In this document: positions 4,860 through 60,730 of the stretch, piece by piece | Numbering within the stretch: position 1 is the first letter of the stretch | Layout of the letters: each line of letters starts with the position of its first letter | IMG/VR virus record: IMGVR_UViG_3300025687_000001 | Span: 32,001-96,000 of that record | DNA length: 64,000 bases | Reading direction: 5' to 3' (one strand) | From: a virus | Notes under the pieces: model-generated | Told to the model about the DNA's origin: nothing | Database searches by the model: none | The model's input: only the letters and a program-made list of their open reading frames with translations | Program-made: the position numbers and the translations under genes

Positions 4860-5636
4860 ATGCACAAGTTTTCCGAAGCAGCGTTGTCGGGGGCGCCTTG
4901 GTCCGTGTCCAAGGCTGATACTGCAATCAAGTGCCCGCTTAAGTACACGTATCAGTACGTCGAGAAGTTAAAGCTCACCGGCGCGCAAGCTGCGAATCTA
5001 GACGACACGGCTCTCCGCGTTGGCAGCGCCGCCCACGAGTACGCGGAGGCCTGCGCCAAGGGTCGCCCTAAGACAATGGCGCTTAGGCAGGCCATCAAGA
5101 AGAACAAGCTTCTCTCTGAAGAGAAGGAGAAGCTCGAGTACCTCATCCCGGGCATCGAAGAGTTTCTTACGCGCGTAGAAGCGTTTAAGACTAATCAGGG
5201 AATCAGCGACGACCTGGTAGAGGGAGACTTCGGCATTACTGCGGAGGGTGCACCAACCGGGTTTTGGGACGACGACGTTTTCTTTCGATGGAAGGTTGAC
5301 CGCCAGCTAGTCTCTGCTACCGGCAAGACGGCGGCGATTATTGACCTGAAGACGGGAAAGTCTACTTCGCTTCGTTGGTCCCAGAATCAGTTGGACGCGT
5401 ACGCTTACGGCGCGTTCTGCGCGTATCCGGAGCTCGAGCGTGTACGGTGTGGGTTGTTTTCTGCTATGGACGGAGACTTCATTTGGGCTCCGGAGTACCG
5501 TAGAGACACTATGGATGACAACCCCACCCCCGCTTTCCTGGAAGAAGCGGCCGAAGCCTCTACGTCGACGGAAGCCAAGCCCGGTAAGCACTGCAACTGG
5601 TGCCCCTACCAGAACGTCTGCCCGGCAAAGCAGTGA
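4860..5636 (+). CDS. Second Cas4-like PD-(D/E)XK nuclease
   Basis: WSVSK..CP, GSAAH, LVEGDF, KVDR, IIDLKTG, QLDAY and HCNWCPYQNVC. Confidence 0.85.
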   Translation: MHKFSEAALSGAPWSVSKADTAIKCPLKYTYQYVEKLKLTGAQAANLDDTALRVGSAAHEYAEACAKGRPKTMALRQAIKKNKLLSEEKEKLEYLIPGIEEFLTRVEAFKTNQGISDDLVEGDFGITAEGAPTGFWDDDVFFRWKVDRQLVSATGKTAAIIDLKTGKSTSLRWSQNQLDAYAYGAFCAYPELERVRCGLFSAMDGDFIWAPEYRRDTMDDNPTPAFLEEAAEASTSTEAKPGKHCNWCPYQNVCPAKQ

Positions 5637-12080: not shown

Positions 12081-12199
12081 TCTAACTAAGCGCCCCGTTG
12101 GGCCAGCAGCGCAACGCTGTTTCAGTTGGTCTCATCAGTGCTCTGCGAGCACTGATGGTCATCTCGGCGACCTGGTCGCTGCAATCTTCGTTAGTTAGA
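12081..12199 (+). ncRNA. Retron msr-msd-like ncRNA, unit 1
   Basis: Closing IR tctaactaa/ttagttaga with G12090 opposite G12190. Hairpins gccc-cgtt-gggc and cagcg-caa-cgctg, then an 11-bp hairpin catcagtgctc/gagcactgatg. Confidence 0.65.
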
Positions 12200-12200
12200 T

Positions 12201-12355
12201 TTGGGATAGCCCACTTTGTGTGGTTGGGGAAGTGACTTCCCTAGAGTAACACTAAGGGCCCGGCCCCCCTTCCAGATGTCCGCCGGCGCCCGGCGGGGCC
12301 CTCTACTTAAGTGCCCCGCGGAGCTCGGTTAGGAACTCAATAAATCGTATCCCAA
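12201..12355 (+). ncRNA. Retron msr-msd-like ncRNA, unit 2
   Basis: Closing IR ttgggata/tatcccaa with G12209 opposite G12347. Hairpins ccac-tttgt-gtgg and gggaag-tga-cttccc, then nested agggccc/gggccct and ccgccgg/ccggcgg stems. Confidence 0.65.
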
Positions 12356-12358
12356 GCT

Positions 12359-12480
12359 TTGAATCAGGCAGCCTTTCGGCTAATCCCCCGAAACGGGGGA
12401 GACGTACCTCCGGGGCTCCTACCGTCACTCCCCGTCGGCGGAGCTGCTCGAGATGAACTGGGCTCGAAATCGTGATTCAA
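12359..12480 (+). ncRNA. Retron msr-msd-like ncRNA, unit 3
   Basis: Closing IR ttgaatca/tgattcaa with G12367 opposite G12472. Hairpins agcc-tttc-ggct and tcccccg-aaa-cggggga, then gctcc/ggagc and tcgag/ctcga stems. Confidence 0.65.
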
Positions 12481-12482
12481 CG

Positions 12483-48949: not shown

Positions 48950-49003
48950 CCCTCGTAGGACTAACTCCGCGCGAGCGCTGCCCCACGAGGTTGTCAGAAA
49001 TTT
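48949..49003 (-). promoter_or_regulatory. Programmed -1 frameshift signal
   Basis: A_AAT_TTC (49003-48997), a 6-nt spacer, then the stem cctcgtggg/cctacgagg. Confidence 0.8.
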
Positions 49004-49611
49004 TCGATGGCCCTGGGGTCCCCGGCGAGCTGCACCTTCCGGTCAAACCGAACCAAAACCTGCCCTAACGTAAAGAAAACCTGCTCCGGGAGATTCGTAC
49101 AGAAGTTATATCGAGCTCGCCAGGCAGACTCGACGTCCTCCGCGTTCTCAGGGCTGGGGAAGATGAACTTCTCATTACCGTAGCGGGCCAAACTAGCCGC
49201 CACGTTATGGCGCGTAACGATGTGGTTGAAGTGGTTGGTGGTGCGCGGCTCGGTGTCGTACAAAATGTCCGCGAGCCTATCCGCGTCCCGAGTCGTACGC
49301 GTCCGGAACGTAAACACAGTGCCGCGCAGCTGATAGCTCTCCTCGTAATGCCCCTTGGACAGGAGAGAGTCGAGCACCGTCATGACGCTGTTTTCGCTGA
49401 TCTTCGCTTCCGCCAGCTCCTCCAGCCACAGGTCTTTGGCCGTCTTGGCTTGAAGAGGCTTAGCAGCAATCTCCTCCGCCGCCGCCTCCTCCTCCTCCTC
49501 CTCAGGAGCCTCGACCACCTCCGGGTCCTCTGCGGGCTCCGGGGAGGCCGCTAGGTTGGAGAGCCTGCGGGCTGCGCTGGCGTTGCCTAGCTCGGATAGC
49601 TTGATGGACAC
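48994..49611 (-). CDS. Tail assembly chaperone (G-like)
   Basis: Lies upstream of the tape-measure gene and ends ENF* on a slippery heptamer. Confidence 0.75.
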   Translation of the reverse strand: MSIKLSELGNASAARRLSNLAASPEPAEDPEVVEAPEEEEEEAAAEEIAAKPLQAKTAKDLWLEELAEAKISENSVMTVLDSLLSKGHYEESYQLRGTVFTFRTRTTRDADRLADILYDTEPRTTNHFNHIVTRHNVAASLARYGNEKFIFPSPENAEDVESAWRARYNFCTNLPEQVFFTLGQVLVRFDRKVQLAGDPRAIENF

Positions 49612-49639
49612 TACTTACTCCGCAAAAAAAGAAGGTTAG

Positions 49640-49650
49640 CTGGCATAAGT
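49640..49650 (+). promoter_or_regulatory. Putative phage promoter motif CTGGCATAAGT
   Basis: Recurs near 57562 and 62423, with a variant near 50343, each at the start of a + strand unit. Confidence 0.55.
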
Positions 49651-49780
49651 CCCTGAGATCTCTAGGTGTAGTGCACAGCACTTGGAGTTCTCAGGGTCAC
49701 AGTGCTCCCAACATACGGGAGTCAGGCCCTTACCGCCAGCCTTAGTTTTTGACGTAGCTGTTGAAAGCCTGGGTTGGTAG

Positions 49781-49947
49781 GCTACTCCTAGTTAAGCCTA
49801 GTAGGCTAGCTCTTGTAACAAGAGCGCAGTTGTCTACCGGTGCAAACCGGTAGAGGCGATGAGCCAGCCGGAGACGCGTATTTTATCGGTACCCGAACTA
49901 GCCCAGAAAAACATCCGGCCTGCAGATGTCGACCTCGTAGGAGTAGC
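49781..49947 (+). ncRNA. Retron msr-msd-like ncRNA, unit 4 (solo)
   Basis: 10-bp IR gctactccta/taggagtagc with G49791 opposite G49937. Hairpins agcct-agt-aggct and gctcttg-taa-caagagc, then tctaccggt-gcaa-accggtaga and gccgga/tccggc. Confidence 0.65.
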
Positions 49948-49950
49948 GAA

Positions 49951-50154
49951 GTGACTGTCATAAAAGAAGACGTGTTTGGTGGGGCGACGACTTGTGACCA
50001 CACCAACATCGAATACGAGCCCGCGGAGAACTGCGCTACCTGCGCGGACTGCGGCACTGTGTTTGTGCACACAGACCAAACCGCCCCTGAGGGCGAGCCC
50101 GAGGAGCTCCCTGATGTGGAAGTTGCTCTAGAGGAGCAAGATGGCAATGGATGA
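49951..50154 (+). CDS. Small zinc-ribbon protein
   Basis: GTG after an AGGAG SD; CDH...CATCADC. Confidence 0.5.
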   Translation: MTVIKEDVFGGATTCDHTNIEYEPAENCATCADCGTVFVHTDQTAPEGEPEELPDVEVALEEQDGNG

Positions 50155-50356
50155 GTTTTTAGCCGAAGTGTTTGAGCGCGCGTCCCACGGAAACGTAGGG
50201 CTAGCTAATGTCATGAGTAGCGCCTCTCGGTACGGCATCCCTGCTTCGGACGCTCGTAGCCTGCTCAGGCTGGCTGTGCAGGAGCAGCGCCTGCCGGAGG
50301 CGGCTCTAAAAGAGGGGCTTGGTCGCTTCTTGGGGCTAAAATCTGGCAAAAGCTAA
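50141..50356 (+). CDS. Hypothetical protein
   Basis: SD gaggag upstream; 71 aa. Confidence 0.5.
   Translation: MAMDEFLAEVFERASHGNVGLANVMSSASRYGIPASDARSLLRLAVQEQRLPEAALKEGLGRFLGLKSGKS
50336..50352 (+). promoter_or_regulatory. Promoter motif variant CTAAAATCTGGCAAAAG
   Basis: One mismatch to the copy at 57555; 7 nt before the ATG. Confidence 0.45.
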
Positions 50357-50359
50357 CGA

Positions 50360-51565
50360 ATGTACCCCACCCTGCCCTGGGTGACATCCGCGCTAAACAC
50401 ACTGTACGGCGTGGAAAAGCCCGCAGCGGCAATTAGCCTCTCCTTGGTTTCTGGTGAAGGCTGTATCCTTTTCGGCCCTCCAGGAAACGGTAAAACGCGC
50501 ATGCTAGAACTCGTTCTCGAGGCTCTGGCCCGCGCCGCTGACCCACTCAAGCCGTGGTCAGCCACTATGACTTCCGAGTCGACAATCGACGACCTGATCG
50601 GCCCCCTCGACCTCACACCTATCATCGAACAAAGTGGGGGGCCGTACAACCACCGACGCACAGTCGAAGGGTTGCTCCACGCTGACGTGGTGTGGCTTCG
50701 CGAGGGGCTGAGTGCCCCGCCGCGAACGCTGGCCTCCGTGCGCGACATCATGGAAAGCAAGGTCTTCGCGAATGGGGACCAGCAAGTTCCGTCGTCTGTC
50801 AAAGCCTGGCTTCTCGACACCAACATCGAGCCGCGTGAGCTGATGGAGATGGGTGACGAGTTCCGAGCACTCACCGAACGGTTCCCTCTGCAGGTCTCGG
50901 TAAACCTGTCTCCCTCCGTGCAGAACCTGAAGAGCGCATACTACTCCGCGCAGTTCGAGCGGCAACTCCCCCACGGACCTTCCATGGAGGAGTTCCGTAC
51001 TATGCAAGCGGCCTGCAAGGTCGTGTCTGTGGGCGAGGACAGCCTCTCCCACGCTGCTACGCTGATGGCCAATGCGGCCAAGGCGCACGGGTTCGTGCTC
51101 AACCCGCGCATCTTCCAGAAGGGCGTGCGGTTGATGCAAGCCAGCGCTACCATACACGGCCGAGGGCACACGACCTCAGAGGACCTGGCTGCGCTGGTGT
51201 TTGTGCCTGGTGGCGAAGTCCTCGAAGAGGAGCTGGGCACCAACATCCAGCGAGCTCAGATCCACAGTGCCGCCAACAAACGTCTAAGCGACGCTGCCTC
51301 GCTGTACGATGAGTGGCGCCGCCTTCACCGAGAGGCGAAGTCTGGGAACTTCATTGCCCAGAGCATGCTCCAGACTACCTTGGAGCACCTAAAGGTCAAG
51401 GTGGCCGGGCTGCCTCGTCTACCCGACGAAGCAGTAGCCGACCGAGATCGGCTACTGGACAGGCTCAGAGAGCAGATGAAGCTGCAGAGCCACACAACTC
51501 AGCGGCTTCTCCAGCTCAAACCGGAGTACGCAGACTTCGTAGCGAAAGTGGATGCCCTCTACTAG
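50360..51565 (+). CDS. RavA-like MoxR AAA+ ATPase
   Basis: FGPPGNGKT, DDLIGPLDL, VFANG and ALTERF; Walker B reads VWLRE. Confidence 0.8.
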   Translation: MYPTLPWVTSALNTLYGVEKPAAAISLSLVSGEGCILFGPPGNGKTRMLELVLEALARAADPLKPWSATMTSESTIDDLIGPLDLTPIIEQSGGPYNHRRTVEGLLHADVVWLREGLSAPPRTLASVRDIMESKVFANGDQQVPSSVKAWLLDTNIEPRELMEMGDEFRALTERFPLQVSVNLSPSVQNLKSAYYSAQFERQLPHGPSMEEFRTMQAACKVVSVGEDSLSHAATLMANAAKAHGFVLNPRIFQKGVRLMQASATIHGRGHTTSEDLAALVFVPGGEVLEEELGTNIQRAQIHSAANKRLSDAASLYDEWRRLHREAKSGNFIAQSMLQTTLEHLKVKVAGLPRLPDEAVADRDRLLDRLREQMKLQSHTTQRLLQLKPEYADFVAKVDALY

Positions 51566-52919
51566 GGCCGGAGCGGGCTTCGCGCATGTGCAGACGAAGC
51601 CCCCTCTTCTTTACTATCCACCTAGCACGCAGGAAGTCTACGAAGCTATGCAAGCTAGGAACCTGGGGGACTACGATCCCTCGTTTGTGGCGGACATAGC
51701 AAACGTCGCTGCGGGAGGTACGGTGCTCCCGCAAACGCAGTGGGAAAACCACTACCGTAACCTGGCGCACCTACGAACTGCAGAAGCAGTTAAGGGGGAG
51801 ACCCCAGACATGCAAGCGGCGCGTAGAGCAAGCGTAGAAAAGCTACTTCTGGAGGACGCAGACAGAACCGCTCGGTTCTTAGCCGAGACCGACCTCAGCC
51901 GGTCTCCGGGGGTATCGCCTCTGACAAAGGCTCTGCTGGTCTGCCACATGCTCAAAAACATGCGGCGCAACGAGACGTCCACAGAACAGCTCCTGCGGGC
52001 TCAGAGCAGTAACAACAAAACCGGTCCGGAGTCAGGCAACGTGCCTATCTCGGGCACGGGAAAAGGCCCGCAAAACCGCTACATCAAGGAAGTCAGCGAG
52101 GCTCTGGAGCACCTGGAACAACTGCCCGAGGAGTTTCTAGAGACTTTCGGAGAGCAAGAAGACCGCGACTCGCAGGTTGAGGACCTCATGGACGCCACAG
52201 ACGGTATGGATCTGTCCACGTTCCTTAGGGTAGCCAAGACCCTGGAGAACAGTTGCCTGCTGACCACAACTAAGCAGCGTACGAAGCAGTCCACTCCAGA
52301 AGGGTCTCACGAGGAGCGCAAGGCTCTGCGAGACTTCCGGCACCTTAGCAAGATGACTCGCCGCTCTCGAGCTCAGCTAGCATTAGGTGTGGTGGGTCGC
52401 GCTCACCTGGCAACCGGAGGGCTGTTCTACAAGAACGTCTTTGCCTGGAAAGAGCAAAAGACGCTTTTGTACGTCTTGGTGGATGTCAGTGGATCCATGA
52501 ACAGCCCCTGGCGTATCGGCGCTGCCCTAGGCTCGGTCCAGGCTCTAGCCACTGCAGTTAAGGCGGGCGCGGCCGAGCTCTACTTGCGCTTCTTTGATGG
52601 GACCGTCGGTGACCTTCACCACGTCAAGTCCCCACTAGAGGTGCCGGAGTGGGTGGCTAATATCCGCCGTCGCGCTAACTTCCGGGGCGGGAGCACCGAC
52701 ATCCACCGAGCGATCACCACCGCGCTACGCGACATCCACGAATGGAAAGACGCGTACCGCCCAGAACTTCTGGTCGTCAGTGACGGCCAAGACCAAGTCT
52801 CCACCACTCTGTCTGACCTAGGTCGAGTTAAGCTCCACTCAGTTCAGATCGGAGAGGATGGGTGCGCGCGCCTGGCAAAGCTCGTCTCGGATTCCCGAGG
52901 CCTGCAAATCCAGGTGTGA
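51552..52919 (+). CDS. ViaA-like VWA domain protein
   Basis: VDVSGSM, GGSTDI and VVSDG; overlaps the ATPase stop. Confidence 0.8.
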   Translation: MPSTRAGAGFAHVQTKPPLLYYPPSTQEVYEAMQARNLGDYDPSFVADIANVAAGGTVLPQTQWENHYRNLAHLRTAEAVKGETPDMQAARRASVEKLLLEDADRTARFLAETDLSRSPGVSPLTKALLVCHMLKNMRRNETSTEQLLRAQSSNNKTGPESGNVPISGTGKGPQNRYIKEVSEALEHLEQLPEEFLETFGEQEDRDSQVEDLMDATDGMDLSTFLRVAKTLENSCLLTTTKQRTKQSTPEGSHEERKALRDFRHLSKMTRRSRAQLALGVVGRAHLATGGLFYKNVFAWKEQKTLLYVLVDVSGSMNSPWRIGAALGSVQALATAVKAGAAELYLRFFDGTVGDLHHVKSPLEVPEWVANIRRRANFRGGSTDIHRAITTALRDIHEWKDAYRPELLVVSDGQDQVSTTLSDLGRVKLHSVQIGEDGCARLAKLVSDSRGLQIQV

Positions 52920-59154: not shown

Positions 59155-59430
59155 TTGGGGGGGCACGCCCGAATTCTCTACGGGAGTGCGAGGTACCCCA
59201 ACTCTATCGGACTGCTCCGAGAGTACCTATGTGTGGACGCTCGAGGACGCCACGACGGGACCCTCACCCTTCAACGAATGTTCCGCCCCAGCAAACTCCT
59301 CGTTACCTACACCGGCAGTGATCGGTACCTGCCTTTCTCCGCGCAGTATAGCCCTCAGGATGTTTTGTGGGTTCACAAGGCCTACGCGACTATGTTAGGA
59401 GGGTTAAGGACTGACTTGAGAAGGTGCTAG
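59155..59430 (+). CDS. Hypothetical protein
   Basis: Fills the gap before the tRNAs; start uncertain. Confidence 0.35.
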   Translation: MGGHARILYGSARYPNSIGLLREYLCVDARGRHDGTLTLQRMFRPSKLLVTYTGSDRYLPFSAQYSPQDVLWVHKAYATMLGGLRTDLRRC

Positions 59431-59437
59431 GAGATTA

Positions 59438-59519
59438 GCGAGGGTGGCGGAACTGGTAGACGCACTGGATTTAGGTTCCAGCGACTTTAGTCATGGGGGT
59501 TCGATTCCCCCCTCTCGCA
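59438..59519 (+). tRNA. tRNA-Leu(TAG)
   Basis: Cloverleaf; ctgga-tttaggt-tccag anticodon arm; long variable arm. Confidence 0.92.
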
Positions 59520-59525
59520 TACTTA

Positions 59526-59607
59526 GCCCGGGTGGTGGAACTGGTAGACACCGCTGACTTAAACTCAGCCGCAGAAATGCGTGTGGGTTCGATCCCCGCC
59601 CCGGGCA
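59526..59607 (+). tRNA. tRNA-Leu(TAA)
   Basis: gctga-cttaaac-tcagc anticodon arm; long variable arm. Confidence 0.92.
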
Positions 59608-59611
59608 CTAA

Positions 59612-59881
59612 ATGACCTTCATTCTCCTAGCACCTGACAATAAAAGAGAACTCGGCGCAGTCCAGGTCCTTAGGGACAGCGACACTCACCACGTCCTGGC
59701 GCTGCGCTTTCATTTAAACCACCCGCCCAGGGTGGTCACCTACTCGCAGCAAAACCTCAAAGACCTACTAGCTGCTCAAGACATTGCTGCTATAATCGCA
59801 GCTGACGCTCTCAGCCTGGGGGGCTACGAGCACGCTCCAAGGATTCTAACCTTGTCTGATACGCGCGTAGAAACGCTATGA
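59612..59881 (+). CDS. Hypothetical protein
   Basis: ORF between tRNAs with ATGA coupling to the next gene. Confidence 0.5.
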   Translation: MTFILLAPDNKRELGAVQVLRDSDTHHVLALRFHLNHPPRVVTYSQQNLKDLLAAQDIAAIIAADALSLGGYEHAPRILTLSDTRVETL

Positions 59882-60409: not shown

Positions 60410-60730
60410 TCTTTTCCTGGTAAAAGAAACTGCCAGCAAAGCACTGCTGGCACTAGGGCCGCGCAATGAGCGCTCGCGTTGGACAGAATCCGGTGACGTC
60501 CGCGACCCCGCTGTTTACTCTTGGCTTTCTGCCCACCAAGAACCTGGCAGCCGTGAGGCCCAGGCGGTGAACGATGCGAAATTCCGAGTGGGTGAGAGGC
60601 CCACATCTTCTTCTAAGAAATAGCTGGCCGTTGTGGAGACAATCTCCAGGGAGGAGTAGCGTCAGTTCCCGGATTAAGCTCCCGGGGGCGGGACCTTGAC
60701 CCTTCGGCTGGCGGCGCCTTCTTTAGGCTT
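60410..60730 (+). ncRNA. Candidate structured ncRNA within the tRNA cluster
   Basis: Many hairpins (tgccagca/tgctggca, cttgg/ccaag, gcc-gtga-ggc, gtggg/cccac, tggaga-caa-tctcca) and no credible ORF. Confidence 0.4.

Follow-up and report, generated by a model that had tools for sequence, protein, structure and literature searches.

The element at 49781-49947 of the window (the whole 64,000-nt stretch of phage DNA analysed here) is a genuine structured RNA domain, as it is conserved in other phages, and this conservation together with covariance-model matches excludes a chance fold. On the folding models we favour, on balance, the reading that the element forms the 3′ domain of a ~295-nt structured 5′ leader that would bury the Shine-Dalgarno sequence (SD) of a rightward operon. 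The leader is a new structured RNA that is narrowly distributed and has a riboswitch-like layout.

The window corresponds to bases 28657-92656 of a 95.5-kb IMG/VR record (estimated completeness ~60 %). Its source is a tailed phage, contigs of which extend to ~160 kb and originate from freshwater and estuary metagenomes. It encodes a family-A DNA polymerase, a primase-like protein, a helicase, a large terminase and 11 tRNA genes. The element sits in a 339-nt gap between divergent genes (49612-49950), with a gene for a 205-aa protein on one side and the rightward operon on the other (Table 1). The first ORF of this operon, which starts with GTG at 49951, returned no Pfam or PHROG family match; it is a real gene, since its product aligns from residue 1 with that of a 71-aa ORF at the same place in a second phage lineage (56 % identity). 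The order of the operon genes is common to the window, to this second lineage (L003-L010, hereafter the L004 type) and to contig P0002, the lineage of which has a MoxR protein 55 % identical to that of the window.

Table 1. Coordinates of the leader, its neighbours and the other features discussed (window positions unless a contig or the record is named)
Feature	Position	Strand	Remarks
205-aa gene	48994-49611	-	Divergent; heads a long leftward operon
Promoter-like motif: CGCAAA, 14 nt, TGG, CATAAG (extended -10-like)	49621-49649	+	Spacing conserved
TGGCATAAGT sites	49641, 57563, 62424; record position 21435	+	Pattern count
Hairpin H1 (CCCUGAG ... CUCAGGG)	49651-49696	+	Predicted 5′ end; apical part holds invariant UGUAGUGCAC
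Hairpin H2	~49704-49722	+	Leader fold
Hairpin H3	~49735-49778	+	Leader fold
P1 5′ arm, GCUACUCCUA	49781-49790	+	Anti-SD strand
P2 (hairpin a, AGCCU/AGGCU)	49795-49807	+	MFE/centroid fold, covariance model
P3 (hairpin b, GCUCUUG-UAA-CAAGAGC)	49809-49825	+	7 bp, 3-nt loop
P4 (GCAA-capped hairpin, CCGGUGC(A/U)AACCGG)	49835-49852	+	Most conserved piece; extendable to 9 bp
P5 (long imperfect variable hairpin; the 'msd-like' region of the earlier note)	49853-49936	+	Fold
P1 3′ arm, UAGGAGUAGC	49938-49947	+	Contains the SD AGGAG, 49939-49943
First ORF of operon	49951-50154	+	67 aa, GTG start, four Cys (C-x14-C-x2-C-x2-C)
Remaining operon	50141-52919	+	71-aa ORF, MoxR-type AAA+ ATPase, CoxE-like VWA protein
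MoxR-type AAA+ ATPase	50360-51565	+	Pfam bpMoxR/AAA_5
CoxE-like VWA protein	51552-52919	+	Pfam VWA_CoxE
ECF-type sigma factor (Sigma70_r2, r4_2)	L024:3713-4369	-	Occupies the place of the window's MoxR/VWA genes
Retron-clade reverse transcriptase (RT)	21875-23008		No other RT in the 95.5-kb record; element ~27 kb away
RT relatives	L020:10001-11101; L034:14627-15772	(-) for L034	Conserved syntenic core gene
Kept hairpins, GGGAAGUGACUUCCC and the following GGGCCC-rich hairpin	12226-12310; L020:1220-1290		Gap between convergent genes

The individual parts that the earlier note had read in the element are all present. A perfect 10-bp inverted repeat (GCTACTCCTA, 49781-49790; TAGGAGTAGC, 49938-49947) is bordered on its inner side by a G-opposite-G junction (G 49791 after the 5′ arm and G 49937 before the 3′ arm), the motif TGGCATAAG lies upstream at 49641-49649, and the AGGAG of the GTG-49951 ORF is contained within the 3′ arm, 7 nt ahead of the GTG. 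Hairpins a and b and the GCAA-capped hairpin were recovered in both the MFE and the centroid fold of 49775-49955, and both folds are closed by the 10-bp helix (P1). The base of the long hairpin P5 is formed by GAGG/CCUC plus CGAUG/UGUCG, and a conserved GCCCAGA remains unpaired. The fold energy of 49775-49955 was -67.8 kcal/mol vs -53.2 +/- 4.1 kcal/mol in dinucleotide shuffles (z -3.55), and z reached -5.9 for the fold of the whole leader (gap).

The architecture in itself is less telling than had been supposed. Perfect 10-bp inverted repeats spaced 80-220 nt apart occur at ~17 places in the window (24 overlapping counts) vs 10.2 +/- 3.9 expected from Markov simulations, and chance could thus account for the repeat taken by itself. 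When the closing stem was fixed and the interior shuffled, at least three branches formed in 66/200 cases and at least four in 33/200. The argument that the joint recurrence of all these elements makes chance unlikely is thus weak, as one shuffled interior in three yields a stem enclosing at least three hairpins.

That argument had been drawn from three units at 12081-12481, of which the element was taken to be a fourth copy. A covariance model built from the window copy only (R1, 46 pairs) matched the element itself and nothing else in the window and the 95.5-kb record at E<=10, and returned no match to the three units at the same threshold. The units are also mutually unalignable (47 % column identity, mostly gaps) and have no common structure, which leaves no meaningful basis for the covariance model of the units that the earlier note had proposed. 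The four places are alike in that a closing stem encloses hairpins, a frequent folding outcome. The window does not contain a dispersed family of four retron RNAs. The view of the element as one of several dispersed substrates recognised in trans is likewise unsupported, as none of the links tested ties the element either to the phage RT or to the three units 37 kb away. The units lie between the genes for DNA polymerase and terminase, in a gap that measures 404 nt here vs 183 nt in a third phage lineage, where it does not contain three closed units (this gap was compared in one relative only). Two G+C-rich hairpins of unit 2 are kept in the gap of the third lineage, the remainder of the units being absent from it, and the region looks like a terminator region between convergent genes. 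The 14-mer of P4 occurs once in the window. A second occurrence of the 9-mer GGAGTAGCG, at 60653, was considered and is probably due to chance (two matches vs 0.96 expected, with 27 % of shuffles reaching two); the region around it folds no better than shuffles (z -0.98).

Conservation of the element in two other lineages is what carries the case. In the second lineage, the MoxR protein is 53 % identical to that of the window, the gene order is the same and a 370-nt gap lies at the same place. The L004 type, whose proteins are ~53-56 % identical to those of the window, keeps the whole domain, and R1 matched this copy over its full length (45 bits, E 1.6e-11). Nucleotide identity to the L004 type is 68 % across the domain and 63-67 % in flanking coding DNA, and P5 is the least conserved part (54 %). 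Within the gap, several blocks are invariant between the window and the second lineage, namely the promoter-like GGTTAGnTGGCATAAGTnCCTGAG, TGTAGTGCAC, GGTAGGCTA(C)TCCTAGTT, GCCTAGT, CAGT, CCGGTGCnAACCGG, GAG, GCCCAGA and CGACCTCGTAGGAGTAGC. The last of these belongs to the P1 3′ arm and is unchanged in L004, while the 5′ arm is invariant there except for the loss of 1 nt, as a result of which one G of the helix is bulged. As the arms are invariant in both lineages that have P1, this helix has no covariation support of its own, and an SD would be conserved in any case.

The third lineage (L024/L025/L029) was reached from its RT gene along a 138-kb contig. Here R1 matched the P2-P3-P4 core (25.5 bits, E 1.2e-5) in the gap that corresponds to that of the window, next to the 205-aa gene homologue. 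Around the core are a sub-stem and a long-range closing stem, the sequence of which is unlike that of P1, suggesting that closure itself is selected. It lies ~300 nt upstream of the next ORF, and its closing stem does not include an SD; downstream of it are a doubtful 48-aa frame and then a gene for an ECF-type sigma factor, no homologue of which was found in the window's record. MoxR is absent from the 117-kb record of the third-lineage phage. Homologues of the 205-aa protein measure 214 aa in L004 and 208 aa in L024, and L019, which has a 30 % identical homologue, shows a short gap unrelated to the element. A separate idea, a Y-RNA/Ro-type role for the VWA protein, was dropped: its match to phrog_850 ('RNA-binding protein') is weak (E 8e-4) and covers the VWA part only, Pfam assigns the protein as CoxE-like, and it is absent from the third lineage.

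Because the third-lineage core lies away from any SD, SD occlusion is not the only or the ancestral role of the domain, and for the same reason we retain the reading that the element is a stand-alone non-coding RNA domain, such as a protein-binding or protein-sequestering platform, with the SD overlap being secondary. The P2-P3-P4 core is kept in three lineages and the SD overlap is not, the downstream genes vary (MoxR/VWA in two lineages, the sigma factor in the third), and the divergent 205-aa gene is the sole neighbour of the RNA that is constant across all three. However, neither the window nor the L004 type has a terminator or a gap between the RNA and the ORF, the SD-containing 3′ arm is as invariant as the core, and the partner that such a platform would bind is hypothetical. 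We regard a stand-alone RNA as unlikely.

Covariation across the three lineages supports the internal stems. Twelve pairs are altered on both sides and still paired: five of the seven pairs of P3, two each in P2, P4 and P5 and one in inner P5. Paired cells amounted to 99 % vs 34-45 % when the partners were slid, counted on three independent sequences in a structure-fitted alignment, which flatters the figure; the changes are plain in the raw sequences. In P3, no pair is broken and the loops read UAA, UAA and AUA across the three lineages. The P4 14-mer is the same in all three except for one loop base, and its outer pairs covary. The pairs at the base of P5 covary between the window and L004. 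P2, P3 and P5 include G-U pairs, for which the opposite strand would have C-A; the rightward-read RNA is therefore the functional molecule.

These changes also bear on the reading that the region acts as DNA, with operators or a replication or packaging site in a divergent control region, or that the fold arose by chance. The location between divergent operons would suit such a feature, an 8-bp palindrome (GAGATCTC) is present both in H1 of the window (49655-49662) and in the L024 leader (~5112-5119, minus strand), and 10-bp inverted repeats are common in the window. Against this, the compensatory changes include G-U pairs that are specific to one strand, no turn of GC skew is seen at the element, and the conservation and covariance-model matches rule out chance. 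A DNA-level or chance origin is thus very improbable. The palindrome, which is absent from the second lineage, may itself be an operator.

Further searches did not extend the family beyond these three lineages. The MoxR protein and a MoxR alignment returned no further relatives from viral contigs, and MoxR returned only generic AAA matches from metagenome contigs. An exact pattern of the 3′ arm had no match in viral contigs, and a P4-based pattern gave one true match (the third lineage) and four chance matches. DNA contigs of the phage contained no variants, joints, loose ends or extra forms; they added no covariation and were neutral as to msDNA. Comparison with Rfam 15 returned no family at E<=10 in the element, with three chance miRNA matches upstream only, and nothing in the 12-kb gap or the L024 leader.

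Upstream of the domain, a promoter-like motif is conserved in its spacing, with 17 nt between CGCAAA and (C/T)ATAAG in the window, L004 and L024. The 95.5-kb record contains four copies of TGGCATAAGT, all of them intergenic and on the plus strand. Together with CGCAAA, it likely represents a class of phage promoters whose -10 element ends in G; a scan with a simple sigma-70 consensus did not call the motif. We infer that CGCAAA-N14-TGGCATAAG acts as a promoter, with a predicted start at ~49656-49658. One of the TGGCATAAGT copies lies 25 nt ahead of tRNA-Thr. The leader fold contains three hairpins ahead of the domain (H1-H3, Table 1), and the CCTGAG and TGTAGTGCAC blocks show no change between the window and the L004 type. 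In place of the H2/H3 region (49704-49778), the L004 type has another hairpin module. This module is a 52-nt tandem duplication (L004:5325-5376 and 5377-5428, one base differing), the second copy of which provides the beginning of the P1 5′ arm. The full-length L004 transcript showed no significantly better fold than its shuffles (z -0.76).

In the SD-burying leader that we favour, transcription would start near 49657, at the foot of H1, giving the ~295-nt leader; the promoter-like motif lies ~300 nt upstream of the ORF and the domain ends 4 nt before the ORF start. P1 would close a multi-way junction composed of the short conserved hairpins P2, P3 and P4 and the long variable P5. As the 3′ strand of P1 is the SD, the first ORF would not be initiated in the ground-state fold, and P1 would have to open for translation to occur. 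The suggestion of the earlier note that folding could gate translation is supported, because the SD of the following ORF is part of the 3′ arm. For the predicted 334-nt transcript of the window, the ensemble gives the SD bases an unpaired probability of ~0, and the arm, the SD and the GTG are conserved in a relative at ~55 % protein identity. The corresponding unpaired probability in L004 is 0.07-0.48.

A candidate switch can be read from the sequence. A 6-bp hairpin between the invariant blocks UAGGCU (49778-49783) and AGCCUA (49795-49800) would exclude both P1 and P2, and L004 retains it, a single U-A pair having become U-G. In one state, P1 and P2 would form and the SD would be buried; in the other, this alternative hairpin would occupy some of the P1 5′ arm, thereby freeing the SD. 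Use of GCCUAG in the alternative hairpin would explain why this block is invariant although its P2 partner shifts register from lineage to lineage. Some factor would then read the invariant P4 and the junction bases and shift the balance between the two states.

A different role for the same helices is that of a processing or stability element, in which ~19 bp of coaxial P1-P5 and the 5′ hairpin would act as RNase III or RNase E determinants of mRNA half-life. The 3′ strand at 49926-49947 is paired almost throughout, H1 lies at the predicted 5′ end, and long-range stems flank other RNAs of this phage, as with the 13-bp repeat around a pair of tRNA-Leu genes. Such a role, however, leaves the invariant loops and junction bases unexplained, and for an RNase III substrate the helices are short and contain interruptions. 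We consider it improbable. The repeat around the tRNA-Leu pair is a perfect 13-bp inverted repeat (59422-59434 and 59623-59635) enclosing two adjacent genes (59438-59608), and may be a processing stem.

The window also encodes an RT, and the earlier note had read the element as a retron-like ncRNA used by it in trans. The best matches of the RT are to retron-type models (PADLOC RT_other, RT_XIII and RT_outgroup, E ~1e-49), and its ORF overlaps both neighbours, so that no non-coding DNA adjoins it. All three element-bearing lineages have the RT in a syntenic position, following a DUF2201 gene; the co-occurrence of RT and element is of little weight, as both belong to the syntenic core genome. 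The gene order at the RT locus is a DUF2201 metallopeptidase/VWA-like gene, a 226-260-aa ORF, the RT and a 440-580-aa ORF. In all RTs of the phage clade (11/11), YxDD is replaced by YSDN, the NAxxH motif of region X is without its His and the VTG triplet of region Y reads VLG; their bacterial homologues have YVDD or YADD and retain the NAxxH His. Some active viral RNA polymerases carry Asn at the equivalent place, and for this reason the motif marks the phage RT as apparently atypical rather than dead. The YSDN clade is a separate puzzle, and perhaps a more interesting one.

In the retron reading, P1 would correspond to the a1/a2 repeats, P2-P4 to the msr and P5 to the msd template of a retron-like or hybrid RNA substrate; the RT would use the G that follows the 5′ arm for priming, copy P5, open P1 and so derepress the small ORF. 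The layout fits: the element is ~170 nt long and is flanked by an inverted repeat, with a G at both junctions, two or three short conserved hairpins and then a long variable hairpin by the 3′ arm. G 49791, which follows the arm in both the window and L004, would stand at the position of the branching G, from the 2′-OH of which retron RTs prime. A retron-clade RT without adjoining non-coding space is present in the genome, and RT and element occur together in all three lineages. There is also a precedent in Retron-Vpa2, a type VI system, in which the template is fused to a translationally repressed small ORF (bioRxiv 10.1101/2025.10.22.683967). By definition, however, a retron comprises an RT with a contiguous ncRNA in an (msr-msd)-RT cassette (PMC7736814), whereas the RT and the RNA are 27 kb apart here. 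The perfect 10-bp repeat can stand for a1/a2, but its sequence is not kept in the third lineage, which has the RT, a different closing stem and no robust G/G junction in the MFE fold. The RT departs from retron RTs at all three motifs, its bacterial cousins having both YxDD and the NAxxH His; no described retron RNA model in Rfam 15 matched the element at E<=10; nothing resembling the element was found at 80 bacterial loci with related RTs; the supposed 12-kb sister units are unrelated to it; and its 3′ arm, unlike that of an msr-msd RNA, is an SD. The claim of the earlier note is not supported, and we judge the retron reading distinctly improbable.

In a more specific version, which we hold to be more doubtful still, the leader and the 67-aa ORF would form a phage hybrid RNA, with the distant RT binding P2-P4 in trans and switching the operon on. 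The RT would open P1 either by copying P5 or by merely binding it. If true, this would be the first retron-type RT/RNA pair split across a genome and used for the virus's own gene control. A hairpin in the 5′ coding region of the RT itself (21896-22031; nested, with inverted-repeat arms of 8, 9 and 11 nt; z -3.5) is enclosed by an 11-bp repeat (21862-21872 and 22075-22085) and lies within the first ~70 RT codons. The homologous stretches of two relatives fold no better than shuffles; as the hairpin is not kept in them, it does not represent a concealed ncRNA acting in cis with the RT.

Among known systems, the SD-burying leader that we favour most resembles translational riboswitches and protein-controlled leaders. 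In the thiM TPP riboswitch and the leaders of ribosomal-protein operons, the SD is sequestered by the P1 helix that closes the structure, or by the 3′ strand of that helix. The element shares with these a multi-way junction in the 5′ UTR, a long-range P1 whose 3′ strand is the SD, conserved junction and loop bases, covarying stems and a possible mutually exclusive hairpin. Unlike them, it belongs to no Rfam family and is confined to three uncultivated phage lineages, in one of which it is not adjacent to an SD. Large or medium structured RNAs such as GOLLD and ROOL are known from phages, and the element is likewise a phage-borne, conserved, multi-branched RNA; it is much smaller, lies away from the tRNA cluster and is fused to the ribosome-binding site of an ORF. 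Its likeness to the hybrid RNA (hyRNA) of Retron-Vpa2 consists in a folded RNA domain placed directly before a small ORF that would be translationally repressed. The Retron-Vpa2 hyRNA, however, lies in the operon of its RT and has been shown to be reverse transcribed (bioRxiv 10.1101/2025.10.22.683967), whereas the RT here is distant and atypical and the setting is a phage genome, not a defence island.

If the leader reading holds, the element would be a new structured regulatory RNA of uncultivated large freshwater and estuarine phages. With its clear fold, its invariant hairpin (CCGGUGCNAACCGG) and the simple output of ribosome-binding-site occlusion, it would be a tractable candidate for riboswitch or protein-RNA control, and that control would sit before the phage's MoxR/VWA chaperone-like module.
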